From an uncultured Candidatus Saccharibacteria bacterium (GTDB lineage Bacteria > Patescibacteriota > Doudnabacteria > UBA920), in assembly GCA_964617815.1 (NCBI GenBank), contig CAZTXY010000001.1, forward strand, positions 67,120 to 131,119: a stretch of DNA of 64,000 nucleotides. The letters are read 5' to 3'. This document shows positions 6,540 through 61,368 of the stretch, piece by piece. Below the pieces are notes generated by a model. That model did no database searches. It had not been told where the DNA came from and saw nothing but the letters and a program-made list of their open reading frames with translations. Within the stretch, counting starts at the first letter, position 1. The number at the start of each line of letters is the position of its first letter. Position numbers and translations under genes: made by a program.

Positions 6540-6574
6540 CACTAGGCACTAGCTACTAGGAACTAGCGACTATT
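6540..6574. repeat. tandem heptamer array NACTAGN x5
   Basis: Reads cactagg cactagc tactagg aactagc gactatt. It overlaps the stop codon of the PBP2 gene. Confidence 0.7.
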
Positions 6575-8519
6575 TATTATATCTGTTCTCTGCCCACCAT
6601 TGTAGCGTGCTATTTACAATTGGTACAGCGGCTACATCTCCACCTCCACCTGCCTCAACTAACACTGTCATAACTATTTCTGGATTTTCAAAAGGCGCAT
6701 ATGCTGTAAACCATGCATGAGTACGACTTGGATCACTGCCGTCAAACTGCGAAGTCCCAGTTTTTCCCGCACTACTAATAGGCAAGGTGTTAAGTCTTCT
6801 TCCAGAGCCAGCCAAAATTGTCTGCCTCATTCCTTCTTGAATAATCTTAATATTTTTATCACTGGCAAATTTTTCAATTCCAACTGCTGACTCAAATTTT
6901 TTAATAACTTGTTCGTTTGCATCAACCACTGAGAAGAGCAACTGTGGGCGCATCCCGACTCCATTATTTGCAAATAAAGCTGTCATTGTCGCAATTCGAA
7001 GTGGCGTTACAAGCATATCCCCCTGCCCAATTCCCACATGATAGGTGTCACCTAAATACCACTTTCCTGCAATTGGATCATTTTTATAGTACTCACCTTT
7101 CCACTGCGGATCAGGAACAAGTCCAAATTTTTCCCCTTCTAGATCTAAGCCTGTTGTTTTTTGTAATTCAAACTTACGATAATAATCTGATAACTGAACA
7201 ATCCCCATACCAGAAACCGGCGAACTTGGATGGCCCCCACTCACGGTATAAAAATATATATCGCTACTCTGGGCAATCGCACTCCTAACTGTCATTGGTC
7301 CAAGTCCATCGCGCTTCCACCCATAAAAATTATAACTTTGTGCAGGATTAAACTGATTAGGAATAACCAACACGCCTCGGTCAACTATTGTTGTATTTTC
7401 TGTGACAATGTTATTTTCTAGCGCAGCCAATCCCACCATTGGCTTGACCGTTGAACCAGGTGGGTAGGTTCCACTAATTGCTCTGTCAAAAAGTGGTAAA
7501 GTTTTGTCGGTAATTAAACTTTGATAGTCTGCCTGTGATATTCCATGAGCAAAAAGATTATTATTAAACCCGGGGAGGGAAAGCAGTGCTAACACAGCTC
7601 CAGTTCTTGGATCTAATGCAATAGCTGCTCCACGAATACGAGGAGAAAGCTTGATGAATTCTTGATAGATATGTTCCTGTAATTCTTTGTCTATTGTTAA
7701 ACTAATTGTATTGCCTGGTTTTGGGTCTAACGTTCCAAGAACATTTACCGGACGCCCAAGGGCGTTAACTTCAACACGCTCTTGACCATTGGTACCACGT
7801 AAATATTTTTCATAACTCAACTCAATCCCTGCCTTACCTATATAATCAGAAGCTTGATAGCCTTGGTCGCGAAGATCCTTAAGCTCGTTTTCATTTACGA
7901 TCCCCGCATAACCAAGAACATGTGAAAACATTTCAGGATTTTTATAGTCACGCACAGGAATGCTCTTAATAGAAAAGCCAGGAAATTCAAGAGCTCTTGT
8001 TTCAAATAATATTGCTTCTTGCACCGCGACATCTTGCTTTATAACTACTGGTTCAAGGGAACTATTTCCAGACCGGGCGACAAGAGTTTTTGCCTCTTGT
8101 TCATCAAAGTTAAAAACGCCAGACAAGAGAGTTACTAATTCCGGCACCCCTTCTTTGGGTAAATCGAAAGGGGTTGCGACTAAGTTAAAACTAGCTGTAT
8201 TTTCAGCTAAAGTTTTTCCAAAACGGTCGAGCAGCAGCCCCCGCGGAGCCAAGATTACTCCAGAGCGCAACCGGTTTTCTTCAGCCATAACTCGATAGGT
8301 AGAACCTTCAATAATTTGCAGACCAAAAAGTCTTATAACTAAGACCGAAACAGAAGCAAAAAAGATTCCAATTATCCAAAAGGTGCTTTGCTTCGTCCGT
8401 ATTCCTTCGTAGAAGCCTTCAACTTGAGATAGGCTGTCTACTGCGGCTTCATCAAAATCCAAACCAGAATGCTCTGGTGTTTGGCCAAGGGTTGATTGTG
8501 TCTTGAAAGGATCAGTCAT
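6570..8519 (-). CDS. mrdA: penicillin-binding protein 2 (peptidoglycan D,D-transpeptidase)
   Basis: TM anchor, dimerisation domain, and a transpeptidase domain with the STVK motif. It lies downstream of mreBCD. Confidence 0.85.
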   Translation of the reverse strand: MTDPFKTQSTLGQTPEHSGLDFDEAAVDSLSQVEGFYEGIRTKQSTFWIIGIFFASVSVLVIRLFGLQIIEGSTYRVMAEENRLRSGVILAPRGLLLDRFGKTLAENTASFNLVATPFDLPKEGVPELVTLLSGVFNFDEQEAKTLVARSGNSSLEPVVIKQDVAVQEAILFETRALEFPGFSIKSIPVRDYKNPEMFSHVLGYAGIVNENELKDLRDQGYQASDYIGKAGIELSYEKYLRGTNGQERVEVNALGRPVNVLGTLDPKPGNTISLTIDKELQEHIYQEFIKLSPRIRGAAIALDPRTGAVLALLSLPGFNNNLFAHGISQADYQSLITDKTLPLFDRAISGTYPPGSTVKPMVGLAALENNIVTENTTIVDRGVLVIPNQFNPAQSYNFYGWKRDGLGPMTVRSAIAQSSDIYFYTVSGGHPSSPVSGMGIVQLSDYYRKFELQKTTGLDLEGEKFGLVPDPQWKGEYYKNDPIAGKWYLGDTYHVGIGQGDMLVTPLRIATMTALFANNGVGMRPQLLFSVVDANEQVIKKFESAVGIEKFASDKNIKIIQEGMRQTILAGSGRRLNTLPISSAGKTGTSQFDGSDPSRTHAWFTAYAPFENPEIVMTVLVEAGGGGDVAAVPIVNSTLQWWAENRYNK

Positions 8520-8522
8520 ATT

Positions 8523-9050
8523 TTAGAGCCTAAACCGGTTAGTAAAACGAGTAGAAAATTGCGTAGCTTTCAAAACCAAAAAATATAAAGGATAAACTAA
8601 TAATAAATGATACAACGTTTGCCACAACAGCACTCTCACAATTAATCCAAAGGTTATAGTAATCACTGGGATATGCAGTACTGCTAATAAAAGTGAGATG
8701 AGCCAAAAACCTAAAATTCCTAATACACTGCTAACTGCGGTAACAACCAATAAATACTTCCCAGCATTGCTTGGCAACAAGACCTGGCTAAACAACCAAT
8801 GCACTCCTAGCGCAATGAGTGTAAAAATCACCGCAAATACTCCGGGTAAACCACCGCTAGCAAAGTCTAACCATATGCCAAGCAAAAAGGCAATGACTAA
8901 GCTTTCTCTTTGAGTTCCAACAATTGCTATTAAAATTGCTAAAACTAAAAATATATTTGGTGCTATCGAAAAAAGCGGCAAGTAAATAAAAACACTTGAC
9001 TGCAAAATTACACAAAAAAGAAAAATTAATGTATAAATTATATACTTCAT
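8523..9050 (-). CDS. mreD: rod shape-determining protein MreD
   Basis: Polytopic membrane protein positioned between mreC and mrdA. Confidence 0.65.
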   Translation of the reverse strand: MKYIIYTLIFLFCVILQSSVFIYLPLFSIAPNIFLVLAILIAIVGTQRESLVIAFLLGIWLDFASGGLPGVFAVIFTLIALGVHWLFSQVLLPSNAGKYLLVVTAVSSVLGILGFWLISLLLAVLHIPVITITFGLIVRVLLWQTLYHLLLVYPLYFLVLKATQFSTRFTNRFRL

Positions 9051-9056
9051 TAAAAA

Positions 9057-9851
9057 CTATTTAACTACAAATACAAAATCAAGATCGTTAAAACGAATTG
9101 GACTTTTCACTGTCATTTTTTTAAATAAATCGCTAGGCCGAGAAACTAACTCCCCCAACTCTCCCACAATAATATTTTTTGGAATCTGACTTATTCCTGC
9201 AGTCACCAATATTTCTCCTGACTTTAATTCTGAATTTTGTGGCACAAGATCAAAAACTAAACTGCTTCCAAGAGTTCCTCTGACAACTCCTGAAACTTCT
9301 CCCCCACTAACCACTGCATCAACAGATGATTGCGAGCTTGAAAGCAATACCACTGTGCTAGTTAGGTTGCCTACATAAATAATTTTGCCTACTAAATAAT
9401 TACTAGAAACAACAGGCATACCAACTTGGATATTTTTATTTTTTCCACAGTTAATAATCATCGCATCTGTAACTGACTGCGGGTCGATAGATAAAACACT
9501 ACAAGGCTCTAAACTAAAACGATTTTCTCTCACAAATCCTAACTCCACCCTTAGAGTATCGTTTTCTTGCTTGTATTGATTAAGTAAGACTACCGTATTT
9601 TGAAGTTCACTAACCTTAGCTCTAAGTTCTCCGTTTTCATTTGCAATACTTCGCAATCTATATATTGTTGAAAAGAAATTTTGTATTGGTCTTGCAACCT
9701 TGCTAGTCACCCTTGTGATAGGACGCGGAACTGCCAATATTGCGTATCTAACAGGATCCAGCCAGCCCACTCGATACAACAACCCTAAAATGACGAGGAG
9801 CACCAAGCACCCAAAGACGACAGCAAAAGTTTTTGAGTAAATAAAATTCAT
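9057..9851 (-). CDS. mreC: rod shape-determining protein MreC
   Basis: TM anchor, a coiled-coil, and a beta-rich C-terminal domain. It follows mreB. Confidence 0.8.
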   Translation of the reverse strand: MNFIYSKTFAVVFGCLVLLVILGLLYRVGWLDPVRYAILAVPRPITRVTSKVARPIQNFFSTIYRLRSIANENGELRAKVSELQNTVVLLNQYKQENDTLRVELGFVRENRFSLEPCSVLSIDPQSVTDAMIINCGKNKNIQVGMPVVSSNYLVGKIIYVGNLTSTVVLLSSSQSSVDAVVSGGEVSGVVRGTLGSSLVFDLVPQNSELKSGEILVTAGISQIPKNIIVGELGELVSRPSDLFKKMTVKSPIRFNDLDFVFVVK

Positions 9852-9856
9852 TAACG

Positions 9857-9923
9857 AGTCCTTAGTTCTTAGTGCTTATTACTTAGTCGCACTGTATCTC
9901 TGAGGACTGAGGACTAAGCACTT
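9857..9923. repeat. tandem heptamer array (CTTAG/CTGAGGA units)
   Basis: Reads agtccttag ttcttag tgcttat tacttag ... ctgagga ctgagga ctaagca. The two halves are partly inverted relative to each other. Confidence 0.6.
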
Positions 9924-9928
9924 TGTAT

Positions 9929-10984
9929 CTACCTTGGGATCTTACCAAAGTCTGTTGGAACCAAAACATCTTTAAGCATTTCCAGATCTTCCACCACTAC
10001 TCCAGTTCCGCGCACTACACATGTTAGGGGGTCGTCGGCCACAGTAACTAAAATTTTTGTCTCTTCATGAAGAAGTGTATCTAGTCCACGCAATAACGCC
10101 CCGCCACCAGCAAGGACAATCCCCTTATGCATAATATCAGAAATTATTTCTGGAGGAATTTCTTCAATAACTGATTTCACACTATTAACAATGGTTCGCA
10201 CCGATGTAGACAAAGCCTCCCTGACTTGCGAATCTGTAATTGTAACTTCTTTTGGTAGTCCTGTAACTAAATCTCTGCCCCGCATATGAGCAGATAAAGG
10301 CTCTGGCAATGGAAAAGCCGAACCAACTTGAATTTTAATGTCCTCGGCCGTGCGCTCACCTAATAATAAATTAAAATTATCACGCGCATACTGAATAATA
10401 TTTTGGTTCATCTCATCACCTGCAACCCGAACGCTCTTTGCCACCACCACGCCACCAAGGGACAGTACTGCAATTTCCGAAGTGCCACCGCCAATGTCGA
10501 TAATTAAACTTCCTTGCGCATCTTGCACTGGCAGACGCGCGCCAATGGCCGCAGCCATTGGTTCCTCAATTAGAAAAGCTTGGCGCGCTCCAGCATTTAT
10601 AGTTGCGTCTTGTACAGCACGTTTTTCTACCTCAGTCACGCCTGAAGGAATTCCTACCACCACTCGCGGACGTCTCAAAAAAGTATAAGTTTTATTGTGA
10701 ACTTTATCGATAAAATATCGAAGCATAGCTTCAGTAACTTCAAAGTCAGAAATTACTCCATCAACAAGCGGGCGAGTTGCCACAATATGGCTTGGCGTAC
10801 GGCCAACCATCCGGCGAGCTTCACTACCAATAGCCACAATCTGTTTAGTACGCTGGTTAACCGCCACCACAGATGGTTCATTGATAACAATACCCTTGCC
10901 TTTAACGTAGACGAGGGTATTGGCAGTTCCAAGATCTATACCAATGTCCTTGGAAAATCGGCTGAATAATGGGTCAAGAATCAT
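9929..10984 (-). CDS. mreB: rod shape-determining protein MreB
   Basis: Actin-like ATPase with the DLGTANT and LAGGGALL motifs. Confidence 0.95.
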   Translation of the reverse strand: MILDPLFSRFSKDIGIDLGTANTLVYVKGKGIVINEPSVVAVNQRTKQIVAIGSEARRMVGRTPSHIVATRPLVDGVISDFEVTEAMLRYFIDKVHNKTYTFLRRPRVVVGIPSGVTEVEKRAVQDATINAGARQAFLIEEPMAAAIGARLPVQDAQGSLIIDIGGGTSEIAVLSLGGVVVAKSVRVAGDEMNQNIIQYARDNFNLLLGERTAEDIKIQVGSAFPLPEPLSAHMRGRDLVTGLPKEVTITDSQVREALSTSVRTIVNSVKSVIEEIPPEIISDIMHKGIVLAGGGALLRGLDTLLHEETKILVTVADDPLTCVVRGTGVVVEDLEMLKDVLVPTDFGKIPR

Positions 10985-12240
10985 GTTTGAAGGTTTTTAA
11001 AATAATCTAATACAGTTGCTAATGGAATACGCGTTGAACTCTCTTGATTACGAAGTTTTATTTCAACTTCAGCATCTGCCAAAGTTTTACTCGAAACAAT
11101 GACGCGATATGGGATGCCGATTAAATCGCTGTCTGCAAATTTTTCCCCGGCCGATTTATCACGGTCATCGTACAACACTTCAATGCCGGCAGTTTGCAAA
11201 TCCCTATAAAGAGCGTCCGAAGCTGTTGTGACTTCTGCGCCATCCTTGCCAGCAATAGCTACAATATGCACTTTAAACGGAGCTAAGCTTTCTGGCCAAA
11301 TAATTCCATTGTCGTCATGAGAAACCTCCACGACCGTACCCATAACACGGCCAAGGCCAATTCCGTAAGAGCCCATCACTACAAAATTTTGCTTACCAGT
11401 TTGATCAGTGTATTTTAAATTAAAAGCTTCAGAGTATTTTGTTCCCAAAGGAAAAATATTTCCCACTTCAACCGATTTCTTCTTGGTTACTTTTGCACCA
11501 CATTTTGGGCATGGACTATCTTCAGATAATTTTGAGACCTCATGATTTTCAGCATAGTCGCAAGACTCGCAGGCAAAAATAGTATCCTCACCCACTTCTG
11601 TCTCAACTTGAAATTCATGGGTGAAATTTGCAGTAAACTCTCCGCCCGGAGCAAGGGTGTAGTATGCTTTCAAACCACAGCGTTTAAAAATATTACTGTA
11701 CGCCTTAGCAACTCTTTCATAATAGTTCATCAGATCGTCATCGCTATCATGAAAACTATATAAATCTTTCATCATAAACTCGCGCCCGCGAAGCAAACCA
11801 GATTTTGCACGGGCCTCATTCCTAAATTTAGTTTGAATTTGATAAGCTGAGAATGGCAAATCTTTATACGAATTTATAAAACCAGTGGCAATTTCTGCAA
11901 TAATTTCTTCATGAGTCCAGCTGATATTATAATTTGGTTCTTTATCTTTTCCTTCTACAACTTTAAACACAACATCCACATCCCAGCGACCAGTCGCCTG
12001 AAGATAATGTTTATCGTGCAGAGCAGGCATGAACATTTCCTGCCCGCCAATGGCATTCATTTCTTCGCGAATAATTGCAGCAATTTTTTGCATCACGCGC
12101 CAACCAATTGGTAAATAAGAATAAATCCCAGCGGAATTTTTATAAACAAAACCACCCTGCTCAAGCAGTCTGGCGTTTACAGAAACGTCATCTTTTGGTG
12201 ATGTTTTGCTAGTTTTTAAAAAATATGATGATTGTCGCAT
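10981..12240 (-). CDS. proS: prolyl-tRNA synthetase
   Basis: Class II aaRS catalytic core plus a C-terminal anticodon-binding domain. It overlaps mreB by 4 nt. Confidence 0.9.
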   Translation of the reverse strand: MRQSSYFLKTSKTSPKDDVSVNARLLEQGGFVYKNSAGIYSYLPIGWRVMQKIAAIIREEMNAIGGQEMFMPALHDKHYLQATGRWDVDVVFKVVEGKDKEPNYNISWTHEEIIAEIATGFINSYKDLPFSAYQIQTKFRNEARAKSGLLRGREFMMKDLYSFHDSDDDLMNYYERVAKAYSNIFKRCGLKAYYTLAPGGEFTANFTHEFQVETEVGEDTIFACESCDYAENHEVSKLSEDSPCPKCGAKVTKKKSVEVGNIFPLGTKYSEAFNLKYTDQTGKQNFVVMGSYGIGLGRVMGTVVEVSHDDNGIIWPESLAPFKVHIVAIAGKDGAEVTTASDALYRDLQTAGIEVLYDDRDKSAGEKFADSDLIGIPYRVIVSSKTLADAEVEIKLRNQESSTRIPLATVLDYFKNLQT

Positions 12241-12246
12241 GAATAA

Positions 12247-12280
12247 AGTACTCTGTACTAAGTACTAGGTACTCAGTACT
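12247..12280. repeat. tandem heptamer array AGTACTN x5
   Basis: Reads agtactc tgtacta agtacta ggtactc agtact. It lies between the proS start and the rseP stop. Confidence 0.7.
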
Positions 12281-12287
12281 ATAATAT

Positions 12288-13445
12288 TTAACTACCAAAT
12301 AATTTACTGATAATTCGGCCAACCCCACCAAGACTACTTACATCTTTGACTGTGATAACGGCCATGAGTAGTAATAGTAGCAAAAATCCGGCAGTGTTCG
12401 CTAGTTGCTCAAATTTTTGATTATTTCTCTTTCGCCTAATTTTCTCAATAATTAAGAACAAAACTCGACCACCGTCTAAGGCAGGAAAAGGTAAACTGTT
12501 AAGAATAGCTAAATTAAGCGATAAAAAAGCTGTAAACTGGACTAGATAAATAAAGCCCAGATCTGCCACCTGCCCTGTAAGCTGGGCAATTTTCACTGGC
12601 CCACCTAAACTATCTAAGCCCACGCCTTTGCTAAAGAGCTGATACATCCCTGTAAAAATGGCGCCGAGCTGAGAAATAGTTGTTCGGCCACCCTCCCAAA
12701 TAGCTTGCACTACAGGAAACTTTAACTTCCCAATCGTAGCAAGGGCAATTCCTGTTGGTCCCTGACCAGCTGGAGGTTCACTATTCGACTGCACTACTAA
12801 TTTTTGCTCTTGAGTAATACGCTTAATATTAAACTCAAAGGCCTGCCCTTTATTTGAAAAAATATATTCCTTTAACTCTGGTACCGTCGCAAATTTTTCG
12901 CCGTTAACTCCAGTGACAATATCACCAGCCAAGAGTCCGGCTCGACTTGCTGGTGAGTCTGGGCTAACTTCAATAATTGCCAGCTGAGCATCCCTAACTT
13001 GCGCATGTTTTCCTAAATCCTGCGTGTCATCGTAAGCTACTGGCAGTCCATACATGTAGCCTGCACTAAACAGCACCCAAGCGAGTACAACATTCATTAA
13101 TACTCCGCCAAGTAAAGTAAGCAACCTTGGGAAAAAAGGTTTGTTGATAAAACTTTTTGGATCGCTTTCTGATTCATTATTTTCACCAACAATTTTTACA
13201 AACCCGCCAAGTGGAATCCAGTTAATTGAATAAACTGTTTTTTCTTTGTCGATTGGATCTTTGTGACCCCACAGAAATTTAAATTTTCCACCCAACTTTT
13301 GAATACCAACTAAACGTGGCGGAAAACCAAATCCAAACTCATCAACTTTCATGCCACTTTTTTTGGCAATCAAAAAATGCCCTGCTTCGTGGACAAAGAC
13401 TAATACCCCCAAGATTATTATAAAAATCAAAATTGTTATTAACAT
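12288..13445 (-). CDS. rseP: site-2 protease (RseP-like M50 metalloprotease with PDZ domain)
   Basis: Has the HEAGHF zinc motif and a PDZ domain, and is polytopic. Confidence 0.85.
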   Translation of the reverse strand: MLITILIFIIILGVLVFVHEAGHFLIAKKSGMKVDEFGFGFPPRLVGIQKLGGKFKFLWGHKDPIDKEKTVYSINWIPLGGFVKIVGENNESESDPKSFINKPFFPRLLTLLGGVLMNVVLAWVLFSAGYMYGLPVAYDDTQDLGKHAQVRDAQLAIIEVSPDSPASRAGLLAGDIVTGVNGEKFATVPELKEYIFSNKGQAFEFNIKRITQEQKLVVQSNSEPPAGQGPTGIALATIGKLKFPVVQAIWEGGRTTISQLGAIFTGMYQLFSKGVGLDSLGGPVKIAQLTGQVADLGFIYLVQFTAFLSLNLAILNSLPFPALDGGRVLFLIIEKIRRKRNNQKFEQLANTAGFLLLLLLMAVITVKDVSSLGGVGRIISKLFGS

Positions 13446-13454
13446 AAAGGCTCC

Positions 13455-13473
13455 GAGTACTTAGTACTTAGTT
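13455..13473. repeat. tandem heptamer AGTACTT x2
   Basis: Reads gagtacttagtacttagtt. It lies between the rseP start and the frr stop. Confidence 0.55.
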
Positions 13474-14029
13474 AAACAGTCATTACTTCTTTTTCTTTAT
13501 CTTCGGCAACAGACTTAATCTCGCTATTATAGCTATCAATCATATCTTGAACTTTTTTTTGAGCATGGACAACATCGTCCTCGCCAATATGACCATCTGT
13601 TTCGGCTTTTTTAATAGCCTTCATTAAATCTTCACGGGTTTTGCGCACACCAATCTTAGCCTGTTCGGCAATTTGCCCTAACAGCTTAACCATCTCTTTT
13701 CGACGCTCTTCGGTCATTGCCGGTAAATTAATCCTAATTACAATTCCATCATTGCTTGGTGTAAAACCTAAATTAGCTACCATTATCCCTTTTTCAATGG
13801 CTTGCATCTGACTTTTATCCCAAGGACTAATGGTTAAAGTTTTTGCATCGCTTGCAGTGACGCTGGCAACTTGCTGAAGTGGAACTTTCGTCCCATAACT
13901 TTCCACCATAACTGTTGCAAGCAAAGCTGGATTAGCACGACCCGTGCGAATACTAGAGAGCTCATGATGGTAATGGTCTAGGTGCTTTTGGAATTCTTGT
14001 TTATGCTCGTTTATTATAGATTCAATCAT
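13472..14029 (-). CDS. frr: ribosome recycling factor
   Basis: 185 aa with typical RRF sequence. Confidence 0.9.
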   Translation of the reverse strand: MIESIINEHKQEFQKHLDHYHHELSSIRTGRANPALLATVMVESYGTKVPLQQVASVTASDAKTLTISPWDKSQMQAIEKGIMVANLGFTPSNDGIVIRINLPAMTEERRKEMVKLLGQIAEQAKIGVRKTREDLMKAIKKAETDGHIGEDDVVHAQKKVQDMIDSYNSEIKSVAEDKEKEVMTV

Positions 14030-14056
14030 ATTTTGTAATTAGTAGCTTAATTAGTA

Positions 14057-15115: not shown

Positions 15116-15125
15116 AAATTTTATT

Positions 15126-15974
15126 TTAGTGCATTAATAATTTTTGCAACACTAACTTCTTATTCAAATTTGCCTTAAGCCCATTTAGGGCTAAAAGGCA
15201 ACCGGACATTAAGCTAACTAATTGGGTGTTTGTCTTTAACATTGTCCGTGTCTTTGCCAACAACCTTGCTAAAATAGCAGCTAAATCTTCTTGCTCTAAG
15301 TCCGCCAATTGATTGATCGTTAAAATTTTTGTGGCCGCATCGCTCATGTAAGCATCAAATAATAAATTTGCTTTCTGTTCAATAATACTAGAAGCTTCTG
15401 GATTAGTAACTAACTCTCGCAAACAAGATGCTCTTCCCTGACTTTGGGCTAAGGCATCCTCGGAGGCCTGCCAACCCTTGAGCAAAGCAATAGCGCGTAA
15501 ATTACTACTAGAAAGTTCCGAAAAAATAACAACCTGACAACGTGACACGATGGTAGGTAAAAGATTTTTCTTATTTGAAATCAAAATTAGCACAGTACTT
15601 GGACTTGGTTCTTCAAGTGTCTTTAAAAGCGTATTGGCGGAAGTGAGATTTAAGTTCTCAGCACCATCAATAATAATAACTTTATACTGGCCCACAAATG
15701 GACGGCCACCTAATTCGGAAATAACTACTCTAATATGTTCGACGCTAGTGTCGTCTGTGACAGTGACTAACTTAAAATCTGGGTGAGCTAATAGATTATC
15801 TGCCGCAAGAAGCTGTGCGGCAAAGTCCTGCGCTAAACAAAGCTTTCCAACCCCTTCTGGCCCGGCAAATAAAAATGCATGCGAAATTTGCCCAGAGTTA
15901 AGCTGTAACTCCAAATTTTGCTTCACAAATTCATGCCCAATGACATTCCAAGACAAATTACCAGAAGATTTCAT
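15126..15974 (-). CDS. holB: DNA polymerase III subunit delta prime
   Basis: Clamp-loader AAA+ fold with GPEGVGK. Its size (282 aa) fits delta prime. Confidence 0.7.
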   Translation of the reverse strand: MKSSGNLSWNVIGHEFVKQNLELQLNSGQISHAFLFAGPEGVGKLCLAQDFAAQLLAADNLLAHPDFKLVTVTDDTSVEHIRVVISELGGRPFVGQYKVIIIDGAENLNLTSANTLLKTLEEPSPSTVLILISNKKNLLPTIVSRCQVVIFSELSSSNLRAIALLKGWQASEDALAQSQGRASCLRELVTNPEASSIIEQKANLLFDAYMSDAATKILTINQLADLEQEDLAAILARLLAKTRTMLKTNTQLVSLMSGCLLALNGLKANLNKKLVLQKLLMH

Positions 15975-16053
15975 ATCTTCATTATATCACCATTTATTGT
16001 TTAAAAAAACCTCTTTTTAAGAAAGTTTTCACTTATTGAGTAACATTTATAAT

Positions 16054-17639: not shown

Positions 17640-17656
17640 AAAAGCAAATCAAAAAA

Positions 17657-17695
17657 CCATCTCTAATTCGCGCGGATTAGAGATGGTTTTTGTTT
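17657..17695 (+). terminator. Rho-independent terminator after miaA
   Basis: 11-bp stem ccatctctaat/attagagatgg followed by tttttgttt. Confidence 0.8.
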
Positions 17696-17696
17696 A

Positions 17697-17819
17697 CAGA
17701 ACTTATGGGCTTGGATTGAGTACGAGGCATTTTGCGAGGACTTTTGGAGGCGTAGTCAGACTACGGCGACAAAAACCTCAGCAAAATAACAAAGTAATCG
17801 GCCAAGCCCATAAGTTCTG
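17697..17819. repeat. 123-bp element with perfect 18-bp terminal inverted repeats
   Basis: cagaacttatgggcttgg at 17697-17714 is the exact reverse complement of ccaagcccataagttctg at 17802-17819. Confidence 0.85.
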
Positions 17820-17821
17820 TT

Positions 17822-21317: not shown

Positions 21318-21348
21318 CTAGTACTGAGTACTAAGTACTTAGTACTTG
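21318..21348. repeat. tandem heptamer array AGTACTN x4
   Basis: Reads ctagtactg agtacta agtactt agtactt gg. It lies between the gatA start and the gatC stop. Confidence 0.7.
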
Positions 21349-21352
21349 GGAT

Positions 21353-21634
21353 TTATAATATCGCTTTAACTTTATAATACCCATCTTTAATTTCCGGCGC
21401 ACTCTTTAAAATCTCATCGCGATTATTGGCAGAGCCCACCACATCTGGACGCTGAACATTTTCAAGCCCTGTGACTGAAGCGACAATTTCTAAGCCTTCA
21501 GTGTCAACTTTTTTTAACTCTTCGACATAGTCTAAAACAGCAGATAAGTCTTTTTGAAACTTTTCCACTTCTCCCTCGCGAAGTTCTATCCGCGCAAGCT
21601 TTGCAATTTTTTGGACTTCTTCTGTCGATAACAT
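21353..21634 (-). CDS. gatC: Asp/Glu-tRNA amidotransferase subunit C
   Basis: Start trimmed to MLSTEEVQKIAKLARIEL. Confidence 0.85.
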   Translation of the reverse strand: MLSTEEVQKIAKLARIELREGEVEKFQKDLSAVLDYVEELKKVDTEGLEIVASVTGLENVQRPDVVGSANNRDEILKSAPEIKDGYYKVKAIL

Positions 21635-22236: not shown

Positions 22237-22304
22237 ATTAATCTCCTTATTAAATGAACTTTTGTTTCTTAATTTTGTAAAACTTTATAAATAATTATAA
22301 CACC

Positions 22305-22358
22305 TTTATCAAAAATATCCAAAAATCAAAGGAGGGAGTCGTTTCAAACGACTCCCTC
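22305..22358 (-). terminator. Rho-independent terminator ending the high-GC two-gene unit
   Basis: 10-bp perfect stem gagggagtcg/cgactccctc followed by a T-rich run on the minus strand. Confidence 0.7.
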
Positions 22359-22447
22359 ACAGGTTCTGTAGTCCCTACCTAAGACAGGCAGACACCGGTT
22401 GCTGCACAGATCCTTCCTGTCAGTAGAATGATCATGCAAATCCTCCT

Positions 22448-22633
22448 TCATGAATTTGTTACTCCACCCACGGCACCACTGACCTTGGGTGTGTGATGAT
22501 GATTTACTCCCCCTCTGGGAAGCCTTCTTGATGCAAGCTTCTGCATCTGTTCTTCGAGCCGTCTACGTGCTTCCTTGCTGCCGTTTTTCTTTGCAACAGC
22601 TCGAGCCACGTTCTTCCCCCTCTTAATGTTCAT
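22448..22633 (-). CDS. small basic protein (61 aa), high-GC
   Basis: GGGGGG 4 nt upstream of the ATG. Arg/Lys-rich. It directly follows the Cys-rich ORF. Confidence 0.4.
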   Translation of the reverse strand: MNIKRGKNVARAVAKKNGSKEARRRLEEQMQKLASRRLPRGGVNHHHTPKVSGAVGGVTNS

Positions 22634-22642
22634 ACGGCCCCC

Positions 22643-23113: not shown

Positions 23114-23164
23114 TCCATCTCCTCCTGCTGAAAATAGAATCCACGCCGTCTTTGACCCACAAAA

Positions 23165-23207
23165 TGTCGGACAAAAGAAAACTCGCTACTTTTTGAAGTA
23201 GCGAGTT
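23165..23207 (-). promoter_or_regulatory. terminator-like hairpin in the 5' leader of the Cys-rich gene (possible attenuator)
   Basis: 11-bp stem aactcgctact/agtagcgagtt. On the minus strand it is followed by tttcttttg, 52 nt before the ATG. Confidence 0.4.
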
Positions 23208-23418
23208 AACCTTTGTACAAAATTCTGCGTTTATATCAGTACGAGGTTGCTACTTCATTTTCCCAAAACTTAATGACACCAACAATGGAGGCCATTGCTA
23301 GAGTAGTGTAAGTAATTTGGTTACGATGAGTAGCTATATTCATATTTGTAAATCAAAATAAGCTTAAACAAAGTCCAAACATCTGTCAAATAATTTATCC
23401 ACAGCCTTAAACTACTAA

Positions 23419-23548
23419 CTAGTTCCGCCAGCCGGCGAATAGTGACTAGTGACAAGGATTTTGCTATAATAAATCCATATTAATATGTTCTGCGTGCTTT
23501 GTATCTTTACTTGGCTACTTGGAACTGTCCGCCGGCTGGCGGAACTAG
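23419..23548. repeat. 130-bp element with perfect 19-bp terminal inverted repeats; contains the lemA promoter
   Basis: ctagttccgccagccggcg at 23419-23437 is the reverse complement of cgccggctggcggaactag at 23530-23548. The extended -10 tgctataat is inside the loop. Confidence 0.85.
23462..23470 (+). promoter_or_regulatory. extended -10 (TGnTATAAT) promoter for lemA-htpX
   Basis: tgctataat lies 89 nt upstream of the lemA ATG. Confidence 0.5.
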
Positions 23549-23558
23549 GAACTAAAAT

Positions 23559-24104: not shown

Positions 24105-24193
24105 AAAAACTGAATTAAGAAGTAAGAATAAAGGATTATGAATTTATTACAATATCATAATTCATACTTCATCATTCCTAATCTTTCTCACTT

Positions 24194-31243: not shown

Positions 31244-31286
31244 GATACCACCCTGAGCCGGCCTACTTTCAGGCAAGCCATCCTAA

Positions 31287-31360
31287 CTGTCATCCCGAGC
31301 TTGTCGAGGGATCTCTGAGCCATGATTAAGATCCTTCACTTCGGTCAGGATCACAGTGAC
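31287..31360. repeat. MITE-like palindromic element (copy 2)
   Basis: Reads ctgtcatcccgagcttgtcgagggatctc ... gatccttcacttcggtcaggatcacag. Confidence 0.65.
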
Positions 31361-32191: not shown

Positions 32192-32253
32192 GGAGAGGTC
32201 GCATAGTGGGCAGTAGCAGCGGTTTGCTAAACCGCTGTACGATTGTAAAGCTG
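32192..32253 (+). pseudogene. truncated copy of the tRNA-Ser(GCU) 5' half
   Basis: ggagaggtcgcatagtgggcagtagcagcggtttgctaaaccgctgtacgattgtaaagctg matches the first ~60 nt of the intact gene 13 nt downstream at about 85% identity. Confidence 0.7.
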
Positions 32254-32266: not shown

Positions 32267-32360
<94 letters not shown>

Positions 32361-35215: not shown

Positions 35216-35216
35216 T

Positions 35217-39588: not shown

Positions 39589-39709
39589 ATAAAGACAGTA
39601 TATCTATGATTAAAGATAAATCAACTCTTGTACAAAAGGGATTCTTTACCCTTTCGTAGGTTCAGAATGACGCCCAGAGAATTTAAAAGCCCTATTAAGG
39701 GCTTTTAAA

Positions 39710-39751
39710 TACTAGGCACTAGGAACTAGTTACTAAATGCTACTGACTCAC
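39710..39751. repeat. tandem heptamer array NACTAGN x4-6
   Basis: Reads tactagg cactagg aactagt tactaaa tgctact gactcac. It overlaps the stop codon of the ORF ending at 39740. It is preceded by the palindromic hairpin aaaagccc/gggctttt. Confidence 0.65.
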
Positions 39752-40900: not shown

Positions 40901-41007
40901 TATATCCTGTTGATTTTTGTATCAAGATACCCATAAATCTTTAACCATATTATATCACACAAGCTCAAATTTCACCAAATATTATGATCTTCAACCAATC
41001 TATCCCA

Positions 41008-41087
41008 CTGTCATCCTGAATAAAATGAAGGATCTCAATAATAGGCTCAGAGATTCCTCTCCGCCAGTCGGCGGATCGGAATGACAG
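41008..41087. repeat. MITE-like palindromic element (copy 3)
   Basis: ctgtcatcctga ... gaaggatctca ... gagattcctc ... tcggaatgacag. The terminal inverted repeat is CTGTCATCC/GGAATGACAG. Confidence 0.75.
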
Positions 41088-54259: not shown

Positions 54260-54550
54260 TTAGCCTCGTGGGCGAATAAATTGCGTTTTAATTTTTGGAA
54301 CAATCTCAGTTTGTTGAGACTCCGGAATTTTGTTTTCAATAACTGGTTTGGAAATAGGTTTAGTAACTGCAGGTTGAATTGTCGTAGTATTTGACGAAGC
54401 CGACGCCCCCACACCCTGCAATTTTGCTTTACCACCTGGTAAGCTAAAACCATTTTGCACCATTACAAACAAAACCAAAATAGCCGCACTCCCCCCAATT
54501 GCTAAAAGATGGGTAAGCCCAAAACCAAATTTTGTGTTACTACTCATCAT
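54260..54550 (-). CDS. small membrane protein (candidate pilin-like subunit)
   Basis: 96 aa with one hydrophobic helix (KFGFGLTHLLAIGGSAAILVLFVMV). It is the first gene of the cluster on the minus strand. Confidence 0.35.
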   Translation of the reverse strand: MMSSNTKFGFGLTHLLAIGGSAAILVLFVMVQNGFSLPGGKAKLQGVGASASSNTTTIQPAVTKPISKPVIENKIPESQQTEIVPKIKTQFIRPRG

Positions 54551-54587
54551 ATTTTATTGTTTTTTTGTTTCGGAAAACTTTACTTTC

Positions 54588-55454: not shown

Positions 55455-55490
55455 AGGTATTTGTTATGCATTACTATAACTGTCTACTTA

Positions 55491-55579
55491 CTGTCATCCT
55501 GAATGAAATGAAGGATCTCAAAATGTAGATTGAGATTCCTCGACAAGCCTGCCTGCCGGTAGGCAGGCTCGGAATGACA
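55491..55579. repeat. MITE-like palindromic element (copy 4)
   Basis: ctgtcatcctgaatgaaatgaaggatctca ... gagattcctcgacaagcctgcctgccggtaggcaggctcggaatgaca. Confidence 0.75.
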
Positions 55580-55606
55580 ATGCGGATGGAAGACATCACA
55601 AAATAA

Positions 55607-57778: not shown

Positions 57779-58119
57779 AGTTATTGTAGTATAGCAAACT
57801 TATACCAAGACCTTTACTTTAGGTAGGAAATCTTAATTATGCTGATTTTGCTTAAATATAAGCCAAAAGTTATTTTAAATGCCTAAAATATGGGGGCAAT
57901 GGGCAGGTGTAACCCAAAACTCTTGATAGACAAAATAGGCTTTGCTAAACTACTTAAGTAGTAACCACAACCAGTCGCAAAACTCAAGCTTTTTTTGTTA
58001 ATTGGAGGTAAAAGCTAACAGAAATGCGACTTGGTATCTAACACTTTATAGCGCCATTTAGGCGTCAGTAAAAATGCAAATTTTTACTAAAAGATAATAT
58101 AGACTAGAAGTCTATAAAA

Positions 58120-59376
58120 ATGTTAGGTAAAGGAGACTGTATCTTACAAGTTAGTCACTGGGTATCTGTATTCTCGCGCAAGGCCAAGACCGCTTGGTTT
58201 GTCACCCAATATTTTGCCAAAAAATTTCTGGTGGTTTTAAACTCAAGACTTCCAGGTATCACTAAACATTACGCTAACAACTTTCCAGCAGTCCATCTTC
58301 GAATGGATCGTTGGTTTTATTTTTCTAACTTTTCCAGTGAACTCGTTTTTATAGCGCTTGTAGTTTTTGTTTCTATATTTAGCATTTGGAATTTTCAAAT
58401 AAGCTCCGCTTCAACTGATCAAAGCTTAGCAATGAAACTACTGTCTTATCACAGCGATCTAAACCCAAAACTCTACGCTCAAAGTAACACTATTAAAACA
58501 GTTGTTGTGGGCAATAATAGGTTTGTTTCTGAAGCCTATGCGGAAGAAAGCCTCACTCCACAAATCTCTGAAGAAACAACTGTCAACTTAGTCGAAGAAG
58601 AAGAGGACGTAATTGTAGACAATGCCATCACCAATCCAAATGGTTCTGATGCCCAAAAACTTCTCCACAAACAAATTCAAATTTATACTACGCAGCCTGG
58701 AGACACATTAGCTAAAATTTCCAAACAATTTGGCATAAGCATGAACACTATTATGTGGGCCAATGGTTTATCTGGTAGCACTATTAAACCTGGTTGGTAT
58801 TTGAAAATTTTGCCTTCAAATGGAATTTTAATACAAGCAGGACCAAACACAAGTTTAGCCGAAGTTGCTAAAAAGTATAACGGCGACCTTGCCACTCTTA
58901 TTGCTTACAATGGTCTTGAAGATGAAGAAGACTTACGCCAAGGAGATTTAATTATGTGTGTAAGTTGTAGCATACCCGCCCCACCAACCGCAGCCAAGCC
59001 TGCAGCCAAAAAAACTATCACCCCATCAATTCCTACCAACCTTGCCAAAGCTTCTGGTAATAACTTTGCTAAAGGACAATGCACAGACTATGTTGCTCGA
59101 GTTTTCTCTACTATGGGCAAAGAAATCCCTTGGCGCGGCAACGCCGGCAAGTGGGATAAAACCGCTCCCAAATTTGGCGCTTTGGTTAATCATCTCGCAA
59201 GTGTAGGGGCAATTATCCAGACAACTGACTCACCATATGGCCATGTAGGAGTAGTCGAATCAGTGAGCGGTAGCACCGTGACCTTCAGCGAATGGAATTA
59301 CGCCGGTAAATACAAAAAAACAGTCAGGACACTCTCTCTGAGCGATAAGAGCATTCGAAACTATATACATTACTAG
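58120..59376 (+). CDS. LysM-domain CHAP-family peptidoglycan hydrolase (start codon uncertain)
   Basis: LysM repeats (YTTQPGDTLAKISKQFG) and a CHAP domain (GQCTDYV ... PYGHVGVV). The N-terminal TM helix is around MDRWFYF. Confidence 0.7.
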   Translation: MLGKGDCILQVSHWVSVFSRKAKTAWFVTQYFAKKFLVVLNSRLPGITKHYANNFPAVHLRMDRWFYFSNFSSELVFIALVVFVSIFSIWNFQISSASTDQSLAMKLLSYHSDLNPKLYAQSNTIKTVVVGNNRFVSEAYAEESLTPQISEETTVNLVEEEEDVIVDNAITNPNGSDAQKLLHKQIQIYTTQPGDTLAKISKQFGISMNTIMWANGLSGSTIKPGWYLKILPSNGILIQAGPNTSLAEVAKKYNGDLATLIAYNGLEDEEDLRQGDLIMCVSCSIPAPPTAAKPAAKKTITPSIPTNLAKASGNNFAKGQCTDYVARVFSTMGKEIPWRGNAGKWDKTAPKFGALVNHLASVGAIIQTTDSPYGHVGVVESVSGSTVTFSEWNYAGKYKKTVRTLSLSDKSIRNYIHY

Positions 59377-59383
59377 ATATAAC

Positions 59384-59418
59384 AGTACTTGGTACCTAGT
59401 ACTGAGTACTTAGCACTA
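59384..59418. repeat. tandem heptamer array AGTACTN x5 (left arm)
   Basis: Reads agtactt ggtacct agtactg agtactt agcacta. Confidence 0.7.
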
Positions 59419-59447
59419 ACTTATATAATACTAAACTTTAACAAAAA

Positions 59448-59484
59448 TCCCTGCGCCAAAGGCGCAGGGATTTTTGTTATTTTT
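59448..59484 (+). terminator. Rho-independent terminator after the CHAP hydrolase gene
   Basis: Stem tccctgcgcc/ggcgcaggga followed by tttttgttattttt. Confidence 0.8.
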
Positions 59485-59487
59485 AAA

Positions 59488-59523
59488 CTAAGTACCAAGT
59501 ACTATTTACTAAGTACTTGAGCT
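59488..59523. repeat. tandem heptamer array (right arm, inverted relative to 59384-59418)
   Basis: ctaagtaccaagtactatttactaagtact is approximately the reverse complement of the left-arm array. Confidence 0.7.
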
Positions 59524-59525
59524 CA

Positions 59526-61331
59526 CTATTTTACCACTCGACCCTTCGCTCCTGCATTTGGAATATCGCCAGTAGAAATATCTTCGGCTTTTAAACTAAT
59601 CTTCTGGCCGGTAAAACTGTCGGTGCCAGAAAAAACAATTGTTTTTAACAACAAGACTTCTTGGTTAACCTGATCACTAGACGGATTAATTTGAACATTA
59701 AACGACAGTTTTCGAATAGGCTTAAACCCACCACTATGAGCGTCTAGTTTACCCACTTTCCAAGTTAACTTGCCTGTGGCTGAATCATAACTAACGCTTC
59801 TGGCTTCAGAAGCTAGAACACTGCTTGCATCAAATGCATTTGCAGAGAGTGGCAAAAACGCACTTAAAATAGAGTCACTATAATCGTTGGTCGCATTTTT
59901 CAAAGATAAAGTAATCCGGTAAGTTGTGACTTTACCAACTGCAGGTGGCAGACTTCCTGAGACATAATCCACACTGCCGGCAAGTGAGCTTGGACTGGAA
60001 ATTTTTACAGATAAATCATTCCCTGGCAAAAAAGTTTGATATTCATTTGATTTAATCTTAACTCTTGTAGTGACTAAAATATTAGTACTACTGTCTTTTA
60101 CTGCTGGATTTCGAACGCCAACTGAAAAAGTAACCGTTCCACTTTCACTTGGATTTAGAGTTTCCAAGTTTGGCATTGCTGATGCATTCCAAGAAATTGT
60201 ATCATTATTAACTTCCGCACCTTGAGCTTTAATCGTCGATAAATCTAAAGCCTTTGAGTCTAAACTAATAACAATATTGACTCCTTGCGCCACCACAGTC
60301 CCATTATTTTGATATTTAATGGTATATTGCAGGGTGTCCCCTGGTTTTGCAATTCCATCCTTAAACTGACTAGAAAGTTCTTGGGTGACCACAAGAGGCA
60401 AGCTACTTATTGTTGTTGTAAACTCACCAGTGCCTTGTGTATAGTAACTTCCATTTTCATCTAAGACTAACAGGGATGCTACAAATGGTTTTTGTTCGCC
60501 TGGTTGCGAGTCCTTAAAATTCCCTTGAAAAGTAATTGTGCCGCCAGCATCCTTTGCTAAACGACCAATATTCCATATGTCTTTACCTAAATCTGGTTTT
60601 GGCACGCTGTCTGCATAAACAAACCCGCTTGGATATTTAATTTGAATACGCGCATTCTCAATATCAGCGTCTGAGTTATTTTTATATTCCAGTGAATACT
60701 CTACCAATTGTGCATTATTTGTTGTACTTGGTCCTGTTAGCTCTAAAGTCACGTCTGACGCCACAAGTCTGGTTGTGCTTTCCGTCTCTGCTGTAAAGTC
60801 AGAATTAAAACTACGATATCGGTAATGCAACCTCGCGAGAAACTTTTTTTCATCATTAATATTACCTTGCAAACGAACTTTTATAATTACAACGGCATTT
60901 TGCCCAGAAATTAAGTCTGGAATAGTAAACACTGTACCTGATAAAGTATCAGCTGAAGGCTGACTTGAAAGATAACTTGCCCCTTGTGGATATATAGCCT
61001 CCACTTGCATATTAGTCAAAGTGCTACTGTCTTTATTTTCTATCTTAATTTTATAGACCGCTTCCCCACCACTTGCTGCGGTCTCAGGACCATCTATGCT
61101 AAAATCAACTTTTGCAGCTGTCGGATTAACTGCCCGTGGCCTAAAAGCAAAAAAAGCTAGAGCGCCAATAACTGCTAGTCCAATAATAATGGCCCAAACA
61201 TAATATTTATTACTCGTGTAAAATTGCCCTAAAGCAACTAAAAAACCTTTAAAGCCCGAAGGTTGAAGCCTCAGTTTTGTTGTTTGATCAAGTAAAGATT
61301 GCGGTACAGGTTTTTGTTTAAAATCATCCAT
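59526..61331 (-). CDS. large surface-anchored repeat protein (DUF11/CARDB-like Ig-fold repeats)
   Basis: N-terminal TM anchor followed by multiple beta-rich repeats about 100 aa long. Confidence 0.5.
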   Translation of the reverse strand: MDDFKQKPVPQSLLDQTTKLRLQPSGFKGFLVALGQFYTSNKYYVWAIIIGLAVIGALAFFAFRPRAVNPTAAKVDFSIDGPETAASGGEAVYKIKIENKDSSTLTNMQVEAIYPQGASYLSSQPSADTLSGTVFTIPDLISGQNAVVIIKVRLQGNINDEKKFLARLHYRYRSFNSDFTAETESTTRLVASDVTLELTGPSTTNNAQLVEYSLEYKNNSDADIENARIQIKYPSGFVYADSVPKPDLGKDIWNIGRLAKDAGGTITFQGNFKDSQPGEQKPFVASLLVLDENGSYYTQGTGEFTTTISSLPLVVTQELSSQFKDGIAKPGDTLQYTIKYQNNGTVVAQGVNIVISLDSKALDLSTIKAQGAEVNNDTISWNASAMPNLETLNPSESGTVTFSVGVRNPAVKDSSTNILVTTRVKIKSNEYQTFLPGNDLSVKISSPSSLAGSVDYVSGSLPPAVGKVTTYRITLSLKNATNDYSDSILSAFLPLSANAFDASSVLASEARSVSYDSATGKLTWKVGKLDAHSGGFKPIRKLSFNVQINPSSDQVNQEVLLLKTIVFSGTDSFTGQKISLKAEDISTGDIPNAGAKGRVVK

Positions 61332-61340
61332 AAACTATGG

Positions 61341-61368
61341 TTACTAGTTTCTAGTAGCTAGCCACTAG
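61341..61368. repeat. tandem heptamer array NNNCTAG x4
   Basis: Reads ttactag tttctag tagctag ccactag. Confidence 0.65.

Follow-up and report, generated by a model that had tools for sequence, protein, structure and literature searches.

Tandem heptanucleotide repeats have been noted in intergenic DNA of bacteria since about 1990, and both the preference for 7 nt and the sharing of one unit across a whole genome are still unexplained. Here, we describe arrays of such repeats in a 64-kb stretch of contig CAZTXY010000001.1 (assembly GCA_964617815.1) from an uncultured Candidatus Saccharibacteria bacterium (GTDB Doudnabacteria; UBA920). This stretch, at its full length, is called the window below. 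It is a gene-dense segment of a bacterial chromosome with a G+C content of ~39-40% and 8.8% of intergenic DNA, and its genes lie mostly on the minus strand. They encode PBP2, MreB/C/D, RseP, ribosome recycling factor (RRF), two class II aminoacyl-tRNA synthetases (aaRS), GatC/A/B, FolD, GreA, a ClpC-like protein, RadA, RecO, MiaA, two tRNA-Ser, and a TrbL-like protein of 1339 amino acids. Many of the short spacers between these genes carry arrays of 2-6 tandem 7-nt units, at a density of ~170 arrays per Mb.

In a scan of 185,579 species genomes, MreB is matched best in Candidatus Doudnabacteria and other Patescibacteria metagenome-assembled genomes (MAGs), with identities of at most 82%, and the nearest aaRS relative in a metagenome scan has 66% amino-acid identity. 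No sequence of the same species was found in the genome and metagenome scans or by exact-protein lookup, and no megablast match pointed to a phage origin of the window. An Rfam search of the window returned the two tRNA-Ser genes only, and no family at the heptamer arrays.

Arrays and Their Positions

Arrays were detected with a period scan (15 or more matches out of 21 required at lag 7, with 30 dinucleotide-preserving shuffles as background) and with Tandem Repeats Finder (TRF). They are listed here together with the terminator that two of them flank; z scores compare folding energies with those of shuffled sequences, and the last two entries are marginal.

6540-6574, minus strand: 5 units (sense NNCTAGT, plus strand NACTAGN) in the PBP2-FolD spacer. 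The PBP2 TAG stop (6570-6572) falls in the last, degenerate unit and the first folD ATG (6530) lies 9 nt beyond the array. Fold -14.2 kcal/mol, z = -2.15.
9857-9887, minus strand: sense-strand 3' arm of an inverted pair in the mreB-mreC spacer (plus-strand unit AGTNCTT), stopping 5 nt short of the mreC ATG (9851).
9900-9923, minus strand: 5' arm of the same pair (plus-strand unit CTGAGGA/CTAAGCA), beginning 5 nt past the mreB stop codon (9929-9931). The spacer (9852-9928) folds weakly, at -15.7 kcal/mol, z = -1.07.
12247-12280, minus strand: 5 AGTACTN units between the genes of an RseP-like protease and a class II aaRS, 7 nt past the RseP stop (12288-12290) and 6 nt ahead of the aaRS ATG (12240). 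11-bp hairpin, -14 kcal/mol, z = -2.66.
13455-13473, minus strand: short array of 2.4 AGTACTN units overlapping the RRF TAA stop (13472-13474), 9 nt ahead of the RseP start. Fold not significant, z = +0.47.
21318-21348, minus strand: 4 AGTACTN units between gatC (stop 21353-21355) and gatA (ATG 21307). Hairpin of -10.9 kcal/mol, z = -1.91.
24111-24183, plus strand: inverted pair made up of GAATNAN units and their complement; the flanking genes encode a LemA-family protein and an M48 peptidase. Fold -10.8 kcal/mol, z = -1.22.
39710-39737, minus strand: 4 NNCTAGT units directly 3' of a PD40-repeat protein gene, which ends with a TAG at 39740-39742. Fold not significant, z = +0.11. A separate small hairpin with flanking A/T runs (39685-39706) lies between this array and radA.
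59384-59418, plus strand: ~5 AGTACTN units, 7 nt past the stop of a LysM-CHAP gene, forming the left arm of a long stem. 12-bp hairpin, -13.4 kcal/mol, z = -2.04.
59439-59479, no strand assigned: canonical bidirectional intrinsic terminator between the convergent LysM-CHAP and DUF11 genes (19-bp stem with 9 G-C pairs and a T tract on either side); it is not a heptamer array.
59488-59523, minus strand: ~4.4 AGTACTN units, 2 nt past the stop of the DUF11 protein gene, forming the right arm of the long stem. Fold -14.4 kcal/mol, z = -2.92.
61341-61368, minus strand: 4 CTAG-core units between recO (stop 61382-61384) and a DUF11 protein gene (ATG 61331). Fold not significant, z = -0.58.
23410-23453, no strand assigned: marginal; 2-3 CTAGT/ACTAG-type units on each side of the GC hairpin CCGCCAGCCGGCG in a divergent spacer, z = -1.65.
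23506-23558, no strand assigned: marginal; TACTTGG and GGAACTA units flanking the GC hairpin CCGCCGGCTGGCGG in the same divergent spacer, z = -1.93.

On the sense strand, five arrays are made of AGTACTN units and three or four of NNCTAGT units, and the mreB-mreC pair consists of CYTAGT-like units and their complement. In the AGTACTN units, positions 1-6 are conserved at 80-100%, a value that reflects in part the choice of units by core match, and position 7 is T in 11 units, A in four, G in three and C in two.

The arrays are closely tied to gene ends. Most begin 0-13 nt past a stop codon or overlap one and, where a same-strand gene follows, end 5-12 nt before its start. The overlap with stop codons, claimed in the first-pass annotation of the window, can be read off the sequence at 6570-6572, 13472-13474, and 39740-39742. 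Same-strand contexts, upstream gene first, are PBP2-FolD, MreB-MreC, RRF-RseP-aaRS, GatC-GatA, RecO-DUF11 protein, and LemA-M48 peptidase. At 39.7 kb, the order is PD40 protein, array, small hairpin, RadA, and in the convergent LysM-CHAP/DUF11 spacer an array follows each stop with the terminator in the centre. The earlier description of two arrays flanking a canonical terminator at 59.38-59.52 kb is thus accurate (terminator at 59439-59479). Overall, ~8 of the ~20 same-strand spacers of 18-80 nt hold an array.

Since the arrays extend over stop codons and into the regions ahead of starts, they can mislead start-codon calling in genomes of the candidate phyla radiation (CPR). At folD (5706-6542), the start of the longest open reading frame (ORF), a GTG at 6542, falls within the heptamer array, and the first ATG is at 6530.

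Statistical Support for the 7-nt Period

The nine heptamer sites listed by the first-pass annotation are real. TRF finds eight of them, with period-7 calls at 6540-6566, 9857-9887, 9900-9915, 12246-12281, 13456-13472, 21319-21347, 39710-39735, 59384-59417, and 59487-59517. The ninth, 61341-61368, is under the TRF score and was recovered by the period scan (61340-61373) and by four TAG at 7-nt spacing. Two sites had to be redrawn. The heptamer repeat at 9857-9923 stands, but as two arrays in inverted orientation, not as one. At 39710-39751 the array itself holds, but its last two units (39738-39751) are the coding 3' end of the upstream gene, with its TAG stop at 39740-39742. The inverted GAATNAN pair at 24111-24183 and the partial units at 23410-23453 and 23506-23558 come in addition to the original list.

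The period scan gives 11 period-7 arrays in the window, whereas the shuffled sequences have 0.87 on average and never more than 3. Lags 4, 5, 8, 9, 10, and 11 are at background level, and the signal at lags 6 and 12 reflects coding repeats. The trinucleotide ACT occurs at least three times at exact 7-nt spacing at 7 sites, where 0.25 are expected. All 11 arrays are intergenic, although intergenic DNA makes up only 8.8% of the window, so that their restriction to gene boundaries, as first proposed, is borne out. In a control with the identical detector, 100 kb of Escherichia coli K-12 gave 0 and 2 arrays, both within genes, which is the level of chance. The excess over shuffled sequence (11 vs. 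0.87 arrays), together with the enrichment of period 7 alone, excludes low-complexity AT-rich drift, which the first-pass annotation had named as the finding that would speak against its reading.

Palindromic Cores and Folding

The cores AGTACT and CTAG are palindromic, so that an array of such units is its own reverse complement except at the variable base; the self-complementarity of the window's arrays had been noted correctly. As RNA, AGTACTN arrays of at least 4 units and the array at 6540 are predicted to fold into hairpins of 11-12 bp or into stems punctuated by mismatches, with energies from -10.9 to -14.4 kcal/mol and z between -1.9 and -2.9. A single long stem that encloses the terminator takes up the entire convergent spacer 59377-59525 (-61.4 kcal/mol, z = -10.6). 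Hairpin formation is therefore possible for many arrays of the window, not for all.

A comparison of sense and antisense folding was considered as a test of selection at the RNA level. Spacers with arrays favour the sense strand (112 vs. 54). Array-free spacers (271:147) and random coding 90-mers (229:70) also fold better in the sense orientation; the bias is thus compositional and carries no information on the arrays.

Arrays in Related Genomes

For comparison, 160 loci (2.25 Mb; labelled by L and a number) were collected, half of them around mreB in species genomes and half around the aaRS gene in metagenomes (80 each). They come nearly all from Patescibacteria. A simple scan finds 184 period-7 arrays in them vs. 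36-58 for periods 4, 5, 8, 10, 11, and 13. With TRF at a score of at least 50, 32 repeats have period 7 and 30 have period 14, while periods 4, 5, 6, 8, 9, 10, 11, and 13 give at most 3 each. About half of the period-7 arrays fall in the ~11% of non-coding sequence. These related loci suggest that the arrays are common across Patescibacteria.

Units vary by genome and include AGCTTTC, GAATTTG, GATATTG, TAGTGNN, and CCCTAAA, among others. AGTACTN/GTAC-core and NNCTAGT/CTAG-core arrays are essentially confined to the genome of the window, and a looser signature, ACT every 7 nt, recurs in its nearest relatives (L002, L004, L005, L009, and L015). The palindromic core does not extend to the relatives as a general property, where self-complementary units amount to 10.8% vs. 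11.9% for shuffled units. It is a peculiarity of the unit of this genome, in which one array does what other genomes do with two. Of the non-palindromic arrays of the relatives, 46% have at least three reverse-complement 6-mers within 10-110 nt, and 28% have direct ones.

The mreB-mreC spacer illustrates the paired architecture. The order array, loop, inverted array, a few nucleotides, and ATG is found in the window and in eight relatives (L002, L004, L009, L010, L015, L019, L027, and L030), with a different heptamer in each. The spacer 3' of mreB holds an array in 20 of 128 loci vs. 7.4% for all genes. Among mreB-mreC spacers of 35-250 nt, the median z is -3.1 with arrays and -1.1 without. 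In 72 of 114 loci the spacer is outside this analysed length range, which means that no hairpin is obligatory between mreB and mreC.

Orientation with respect to transcription is random in the relatives (29 same, 24 opposite). Array density is 0.78 per kb in same-strand, 0.63 in divergent, and 0.36 in convergent spacers. Arrays mostly have 2-5 units, with a maximum of 8.3. In 78 arrays of the relatives, mismatches are spread nearly evenly over the seven columns (mean z = 0.21). A conserved core with a variable position was therefore dropped as evidence of selection: it is clear in the AGTACTN arrays of the window, but mismatches are barely concentrated in the relatives. A role as translational insulator was likewise considered, since 51 of 120 units carry a stop on both strands vs. 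35 +/- 4.4 of shuffled units. This excess is not relied on because the ORF-based definition of spacers biases towards it.

One pair lies outside Patescibacteria. In L080 (an Anaerolineales MAG of 67% G+C), an inverted heptamer-array pair with units GAGGTCG and CCGACTT occupies 5855-5938; the architecture is thus not restricted to CPR.

Turnover Between Sister Genomes

L077, L078, and L079 are sister genomes, 91-94% identical in DNA. L077 and L078 differ by a 14-nt (two-unit) indel in one array arm, the other arm being identical. One array is present in two of the three sisters and missing from the third, and one spacer is occupied by AGCTTTC-type units in one of the genomes and by AAGNNCC-type units in its sister. 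A perfect array of five CCCTAAA units at 2626-2675 of L078, a Paceibacterota MAG, adjoins a gene insertion that L077 and L079 lack. This case illustrates how unit identity changes with local rearrangement, and its identity with the plant-type telomere repeat is almost certainly a coincidence.

Relationship to Known Repeat Classes

The arrays were initially thought not to match any described repeat class. An intergenic excess of heptanucleotides had already been described in bacteria (PMC4679880, PMC4692102, PMC2670836), and the arrays belong to this known, unexplained class and are not a new kind of element. According to the survey of Mrazek (2007), as reported in later papers, heptanucleotides are the most abundant class of long simple sequence repeat (LSSR) across the majority of prokaryotic genomes, with polymerase slippage as the proposed cause of heptanucleotide LSSR (via PMC4679880, PMC4692102). 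Two features of LSSR are present in the window: head-to-tail 7-nt units beyond chance, and a non-coding bias for a unit length that is not a triplet multiple. A third, a change of copy number in whole units among related genomes, is seen in another lineage of Patescibacteria (L077 and L078). The arrays share defining features of the class, and they differ from each named family in sequence and host. In an incomplete literature search, no earlier report of heptamer arrays in CPR/Patescibacteria was found.

The closest match is with cyanobacterial STRRs (sequences that are short, repetitive, and tandemly repeated). The units of STRR1-3, described by Mazel et al. in 1990, are reportedly CCCCAGT, TTGGTCA, and CAACAGT. 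STRRs usually have 7-bp repeats and form a hairpin between the co-transcribed hupS and hupL genes, and a role in transcript stability or translational coupling has been proposed for such hairpins, never proven (PMC2670836). As in the window, STRR units are tandem, 7 bp long, intergenic, and specific to a genome or lineage. They often lie between co-transcribed genes, as the arrays of the window presumably do, and can form hairpins, as predicted for part of these arrays: of nine array sites folded, six have z of at most -1.9 and the other three z from about 0 to -1.1. However, the units of the window are unrelated in sequence and have palindromic cores, arrays comprise 2-6 units vs. up to ~26 in Nostoc (PMC4692102), and the host is a member of the Patescibacteria with a tiny compact genome, not a heterocyst-forming cyanobacterium.

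The GGGAATC repeats of Xanthomonas and the GGGGAYT repeats of Nostoc are G-rich heptamers that form G-quadruplexes, with a preference for 4 units. They are transcribed, with no function identified, and occur less often than expected where genes diverge (Rehm et al., 2015, PMC4692102). They resemble the arrays of the window in their strong intergenic bias, their position near ORF ends, and the occurrence of some inverted pairs. In contrast, the units of the window are AT-rich, contain no G tracts, and base-pair instead of forming G-quadruplexes; in the sampled Patescibacteria loci, moreover, divergent spacers hold arrays at a density similar to that of same-strand spacers.

In marine Beggiatoaceae, TAACTGA repeats occur in sets of 2-6 copies just upstream of starts, often without a Shine-Dalgarno sequence (MacGregor, 2015, PMC4679880). 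They also are intergenic, stop-codon-containing heptamers located a few nucleotides from start codons. Their sets are overwhelmingly direct, with one orientation to the downstream gene, whereas arrays of the relatives are randomly oriented and inverted pairs are common; arrays of the window are also found at the 3' ends of convergent genes. TAACTGA itself occurs 16 times singly and never in tandem in the window, where none of the units of STRR1-3 or the GGGAATC, GGGGAYT, and TTTTGAT units are tandem either.

Repetitive extragenic palindromes (REPs) of enterobacteria are imperfect palindromes of 35-40 nt without 7-nt periodicity, dispersed by the REP-associated tyrosine transposase (RAYT). Like the arrays, REPs and the bacterial interspersed mosaic elements (BIMEs) that they compose are genome-specific, short, palindromic, and extragenic, and lie within or at the end of operons, often near stops. 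They are transcribed and form stem-loops that can protect the upstream mRNA. The difference is that no RAYT gene and no conserved element ends were found in the window.

Origin and Possible Role of the Arrays

With a confidence somewhat above even, we regard the arrays as slippage-born heptanucleotide repeats of the STRR/LSSR kind, which survive only in non-coding spacers, are presumably co-transcribed, and can form weak hairpins after stop codons, any function being of the intercistronic-hairpin type and most arrays being near neutral. Units would be gained and lost by slipped-strand mispairing at replication, in steps of 7 or 14 nt such as those seen in the sister genomes. Since the unit length of 7 nt is no multiple of 3, survival is expected only outside reading frames; the arrays persist solely in the short non-coding spacers of a compact genome, of which they form much of the length, presumably for this reason. 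From gene order, they would be transcribed within polycistronic mRNAs or 3' untranslated regions, as suggested by their position between a same-strand stop and start in gatC-gatA and mreB-mreC. A single array with a palindromic core in the window, or a pair of inverted arrays in the relatives, would then fold into a weak, mismatch-punctuated hairpin directly after the stop. The most likely physiological effect would be protection of the upstream message or modulation of the translation of the downstream cistron. Individual arrays are probably for the most part close to neutral, as indicated by their even mismatches, random orientation (29:24), and short length, and by an mreB-mreC spacer that is outside 35-250 nt in most relatives.

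Several observations weigh against this account. At four sites, namely 13455, 39710, 61341, and the mreB-mreC spacer, folding is no better than in shuffled sequences (z between +0.5 and -1.1). Slippage that simply starts from local seeds leaves the sharing of units among separate spacers unaccounted for, that is, five AGTACTN arrays and three or four CTAG-core arrays in the window; likewise, in the relatives, units differ by a distance of at most 1 in 32% of within-locus pairs vs. 9% of between-locus pairs. Related neighbouring arrays of the relatives are inverted in 18 cases and direct in one, and copy number declines steeply above 4-5 units. Slippage explains neither this 18:1 excess, nor the preference for 7, nor the cap at 4-5 units. 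Finally, whole-unit steps were seen only in another lineage of Patescibacteria and not in the genome of the window, for which the scans of genomes and metagenomes found no close relative (best 66% amino-acid identity). The unexplained unit sharing, inverted excess, 7-nt preference, and unit cap keep alive the models based on binding sites, mobile hairpins, and unconventional terminators.

Patescibacteria offer a clean comparative system for these questions, as their small, gene-dense genomes are available by the thousands and have short spacers and a conserved gene order. The alternatives of slippage vs. selection and of hairpin vs. binding site can thus be addressed with existing metagenomes and metatranscriptomes.

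Alternative Explanations

A first alternative, which we hold to be unlikely, is that the arrays are binding sites for a genome-specific nucleic-acid-binding protein, with one site per 7-nt unit, the unit co-evolving with the protein and the arrays being kept by selection for a regulatory or organising role. The binder could be a cold-shock-domain/OB-fold protein acting on single-stranded RNA or DNA, or a nucleoid protein acting on duplex DNA. Cold-shock domains have a footprint of ~7 nt. Cold-shock proteins, S1, and CsrA-type binders have been proposed for the TAACTGA repeats (PMC4679880). Such a model would account for a unit common to separate spacers of one genome and different between genomes, for the 80-100% conservation of the AGTACT core with a variable position 7, and for the persistence of ACT every 7 nt in the five nearest relatives named above, as slow co-evolution would give. 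It fits poorly with the random orientation (29:24), which argues against a strand-specific RNA motif, and with mismatches that are not concentrated in particular columns across the relatives. Arrays are also lost or swapped for another unit between genomes that are 91-94% identical, in most relatives the equivalent spacer has no array, and no candidate binder was identified in the window.

A broader proposal is quite unlikely in our view. The arrays would be a selected, phylum-wide device of Patescibacteria and not a by-product of mutation. The 7-nt word of each genome would be read by a co-evolving single-strand-binding protein with a footprint of 7 nt or written by a dedicated copying process, and arrays or inverted pairs right after stop codons would serve as adjustable hairpins between cistrons, through which the genes of an operon are expressed at different levels. 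If so, such a system would leave its mark in the unit sharing, the 18:1 inverted excess, and the limit of 4-5 units, and the arrays would tune expression in organisms with very few conventional regulators.

It is decidedly unlikely that the arrays are small non-autonomous mobile or recombinationally dispersed hairpins (REP/BIME-like or similar to miniature inverted-repeat transposable elements, MITEs) inserted in permissive intergenic sites, the 7-nt periodicity being secondary. This would suit a genome-specific sequence found in many spacers in either orientation, inverted arms that are common and at times surround a central GC hairpin, polymorphism of presence/absence and replacement among close relatives, and an intergenic, presumably transcribed location, often right after stops. 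Against it, nothing is conserved outside the heptamers, with no recognisable ends or target-site duplications; the five AGTACTN arrays have unrelated flanks, many arrays are single and not inverted, and the presence/absence case of L077/L078/L079 is not a clean insertion. Moreover, a scan of 40 proteins of the window, which covers 64 kb of the genome, shows no transposase or RAYT-like gene.

The first-pass annotation also suggested a transcript boundary element. It is highly doubtful that they terminate or attenuate transcription, in a factor-independent or unconventional way, and thereby end or thin transcripts at gene boundaries. Arrays do lie 0-13 nt past stop codons and several form hairpins; two pass a lax terminator filter (59520-59495 in sense and 21324-21349 in antisense), and the spacer 3' of mreB carries arrays about twice as often as that of the average gene. 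However, the genome has ordinary terminators with a GC-rich hairpin and a T tract elsewhere, and the arrays at 39.7 kb and 59.4 kb stand beside such a hairpin and do not replace it. The stems of the arrays, unlike these, are AT-rich and mismatched, without T tracts. Arrays also lie inside operons, at mreB-mreC and between genes that need co-expression such as gatC-gatA, and in the relatives divergent spacers have a density similar to that of same-strand spacers (0.63 vs. 0.78 per kb).

Lastly, clusters of restriction-modification or methylation targets avoided in genes and concentrated in spacers, or mere low-complexity AT-rich drift, are scarcely credible: the cores AGTACT, CTAG, and ACTAGT are typical type II sites and AGTACT is 8-fold denser in intergenic DNA (2.47 vs. 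0.31 per kb), but this excess is entirely due to the arrays, the units of the relatives are mostly non-palindromic, and coding counts vs. Markov expectation (AGTACT 18/14.8, CTAG 108/132.5, ACTAGT 6/10.2, GTAC 95/114) reveal no depletion of AGTACT or CTAG in coding sequence, contrary to the avoidance or use envisaged at first.

Other Elements in the Window

An element of ~80-90 nt is present in three intergenic copies, at 31286-31360 (plus strand), 41007-41085 (minus strand), and 55490-55578 (minus strand). Its ends are inverted repeats (ACTGTCATCC ... GGATGACAGT), a GC hairpin lies between them, and the core GAGATCCTTCA is conserved. It has no Rfam match at the gathering threshold and looks like a MITE or a structured small RNA.

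Just 5' of the tRNA-Ser(GCU) gene (32267-32360), positions 32192-32250 are a partial tandem duplicate of the first ~60 nt of the gene, which could be an integration scar or a decayed duplicate.

Segment 24000-28000 has a G+C content of 0.487 vs. ~0.39 elsewhere and contains GC-rich terminators as well as the genes for SAICAR synthetase and AIR carboxylase. The GAATNAN arrays, the unit of which is unlike those of the rest of the window, lie in the spacer that borders it (24105-24193). The segment may have been acquired horizontally. Two gene-free spacers, 22237-22642 (406 nt) and 23114-23558 (445 nt), are unusually long for this otherwise tightly packed genome, richer in G+C, and contain strong hairpins. 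Neither has an ORF of at least 80 amino acids or a match to an Rfam family; they could encode small proteins or an RNA not yet described.

A perfect inverted repeat of 19 nt (17696-17714 / 17802-17820, arms 87 nt apart) adjoins a canonical terminator at 17652-17691; both lie in the convergent spacer 17640-17821.

A link between arrays and promoters was considered and dropped. A -10-like hexamer lies at most 28 nt upstream of 6 of 10 arrays in the window vs. 9 of 49 control windows at stop codons, but the link is absent in the relatives (45 of 158 vs. 30% of controls, the antisense side being alike). Individual -10 boxes near starts or arrays are found at 15975-16053 and 61381-61409. At the latter, TGTTATAAT, an extended -10 box, lies across the stop of recO and 12 nt ahead of the array at 61368. 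At the former, the -10 box GATATAAT is located 6 nt ahead of the ATG at 15974, from which a leaderless mRNA may be produced.

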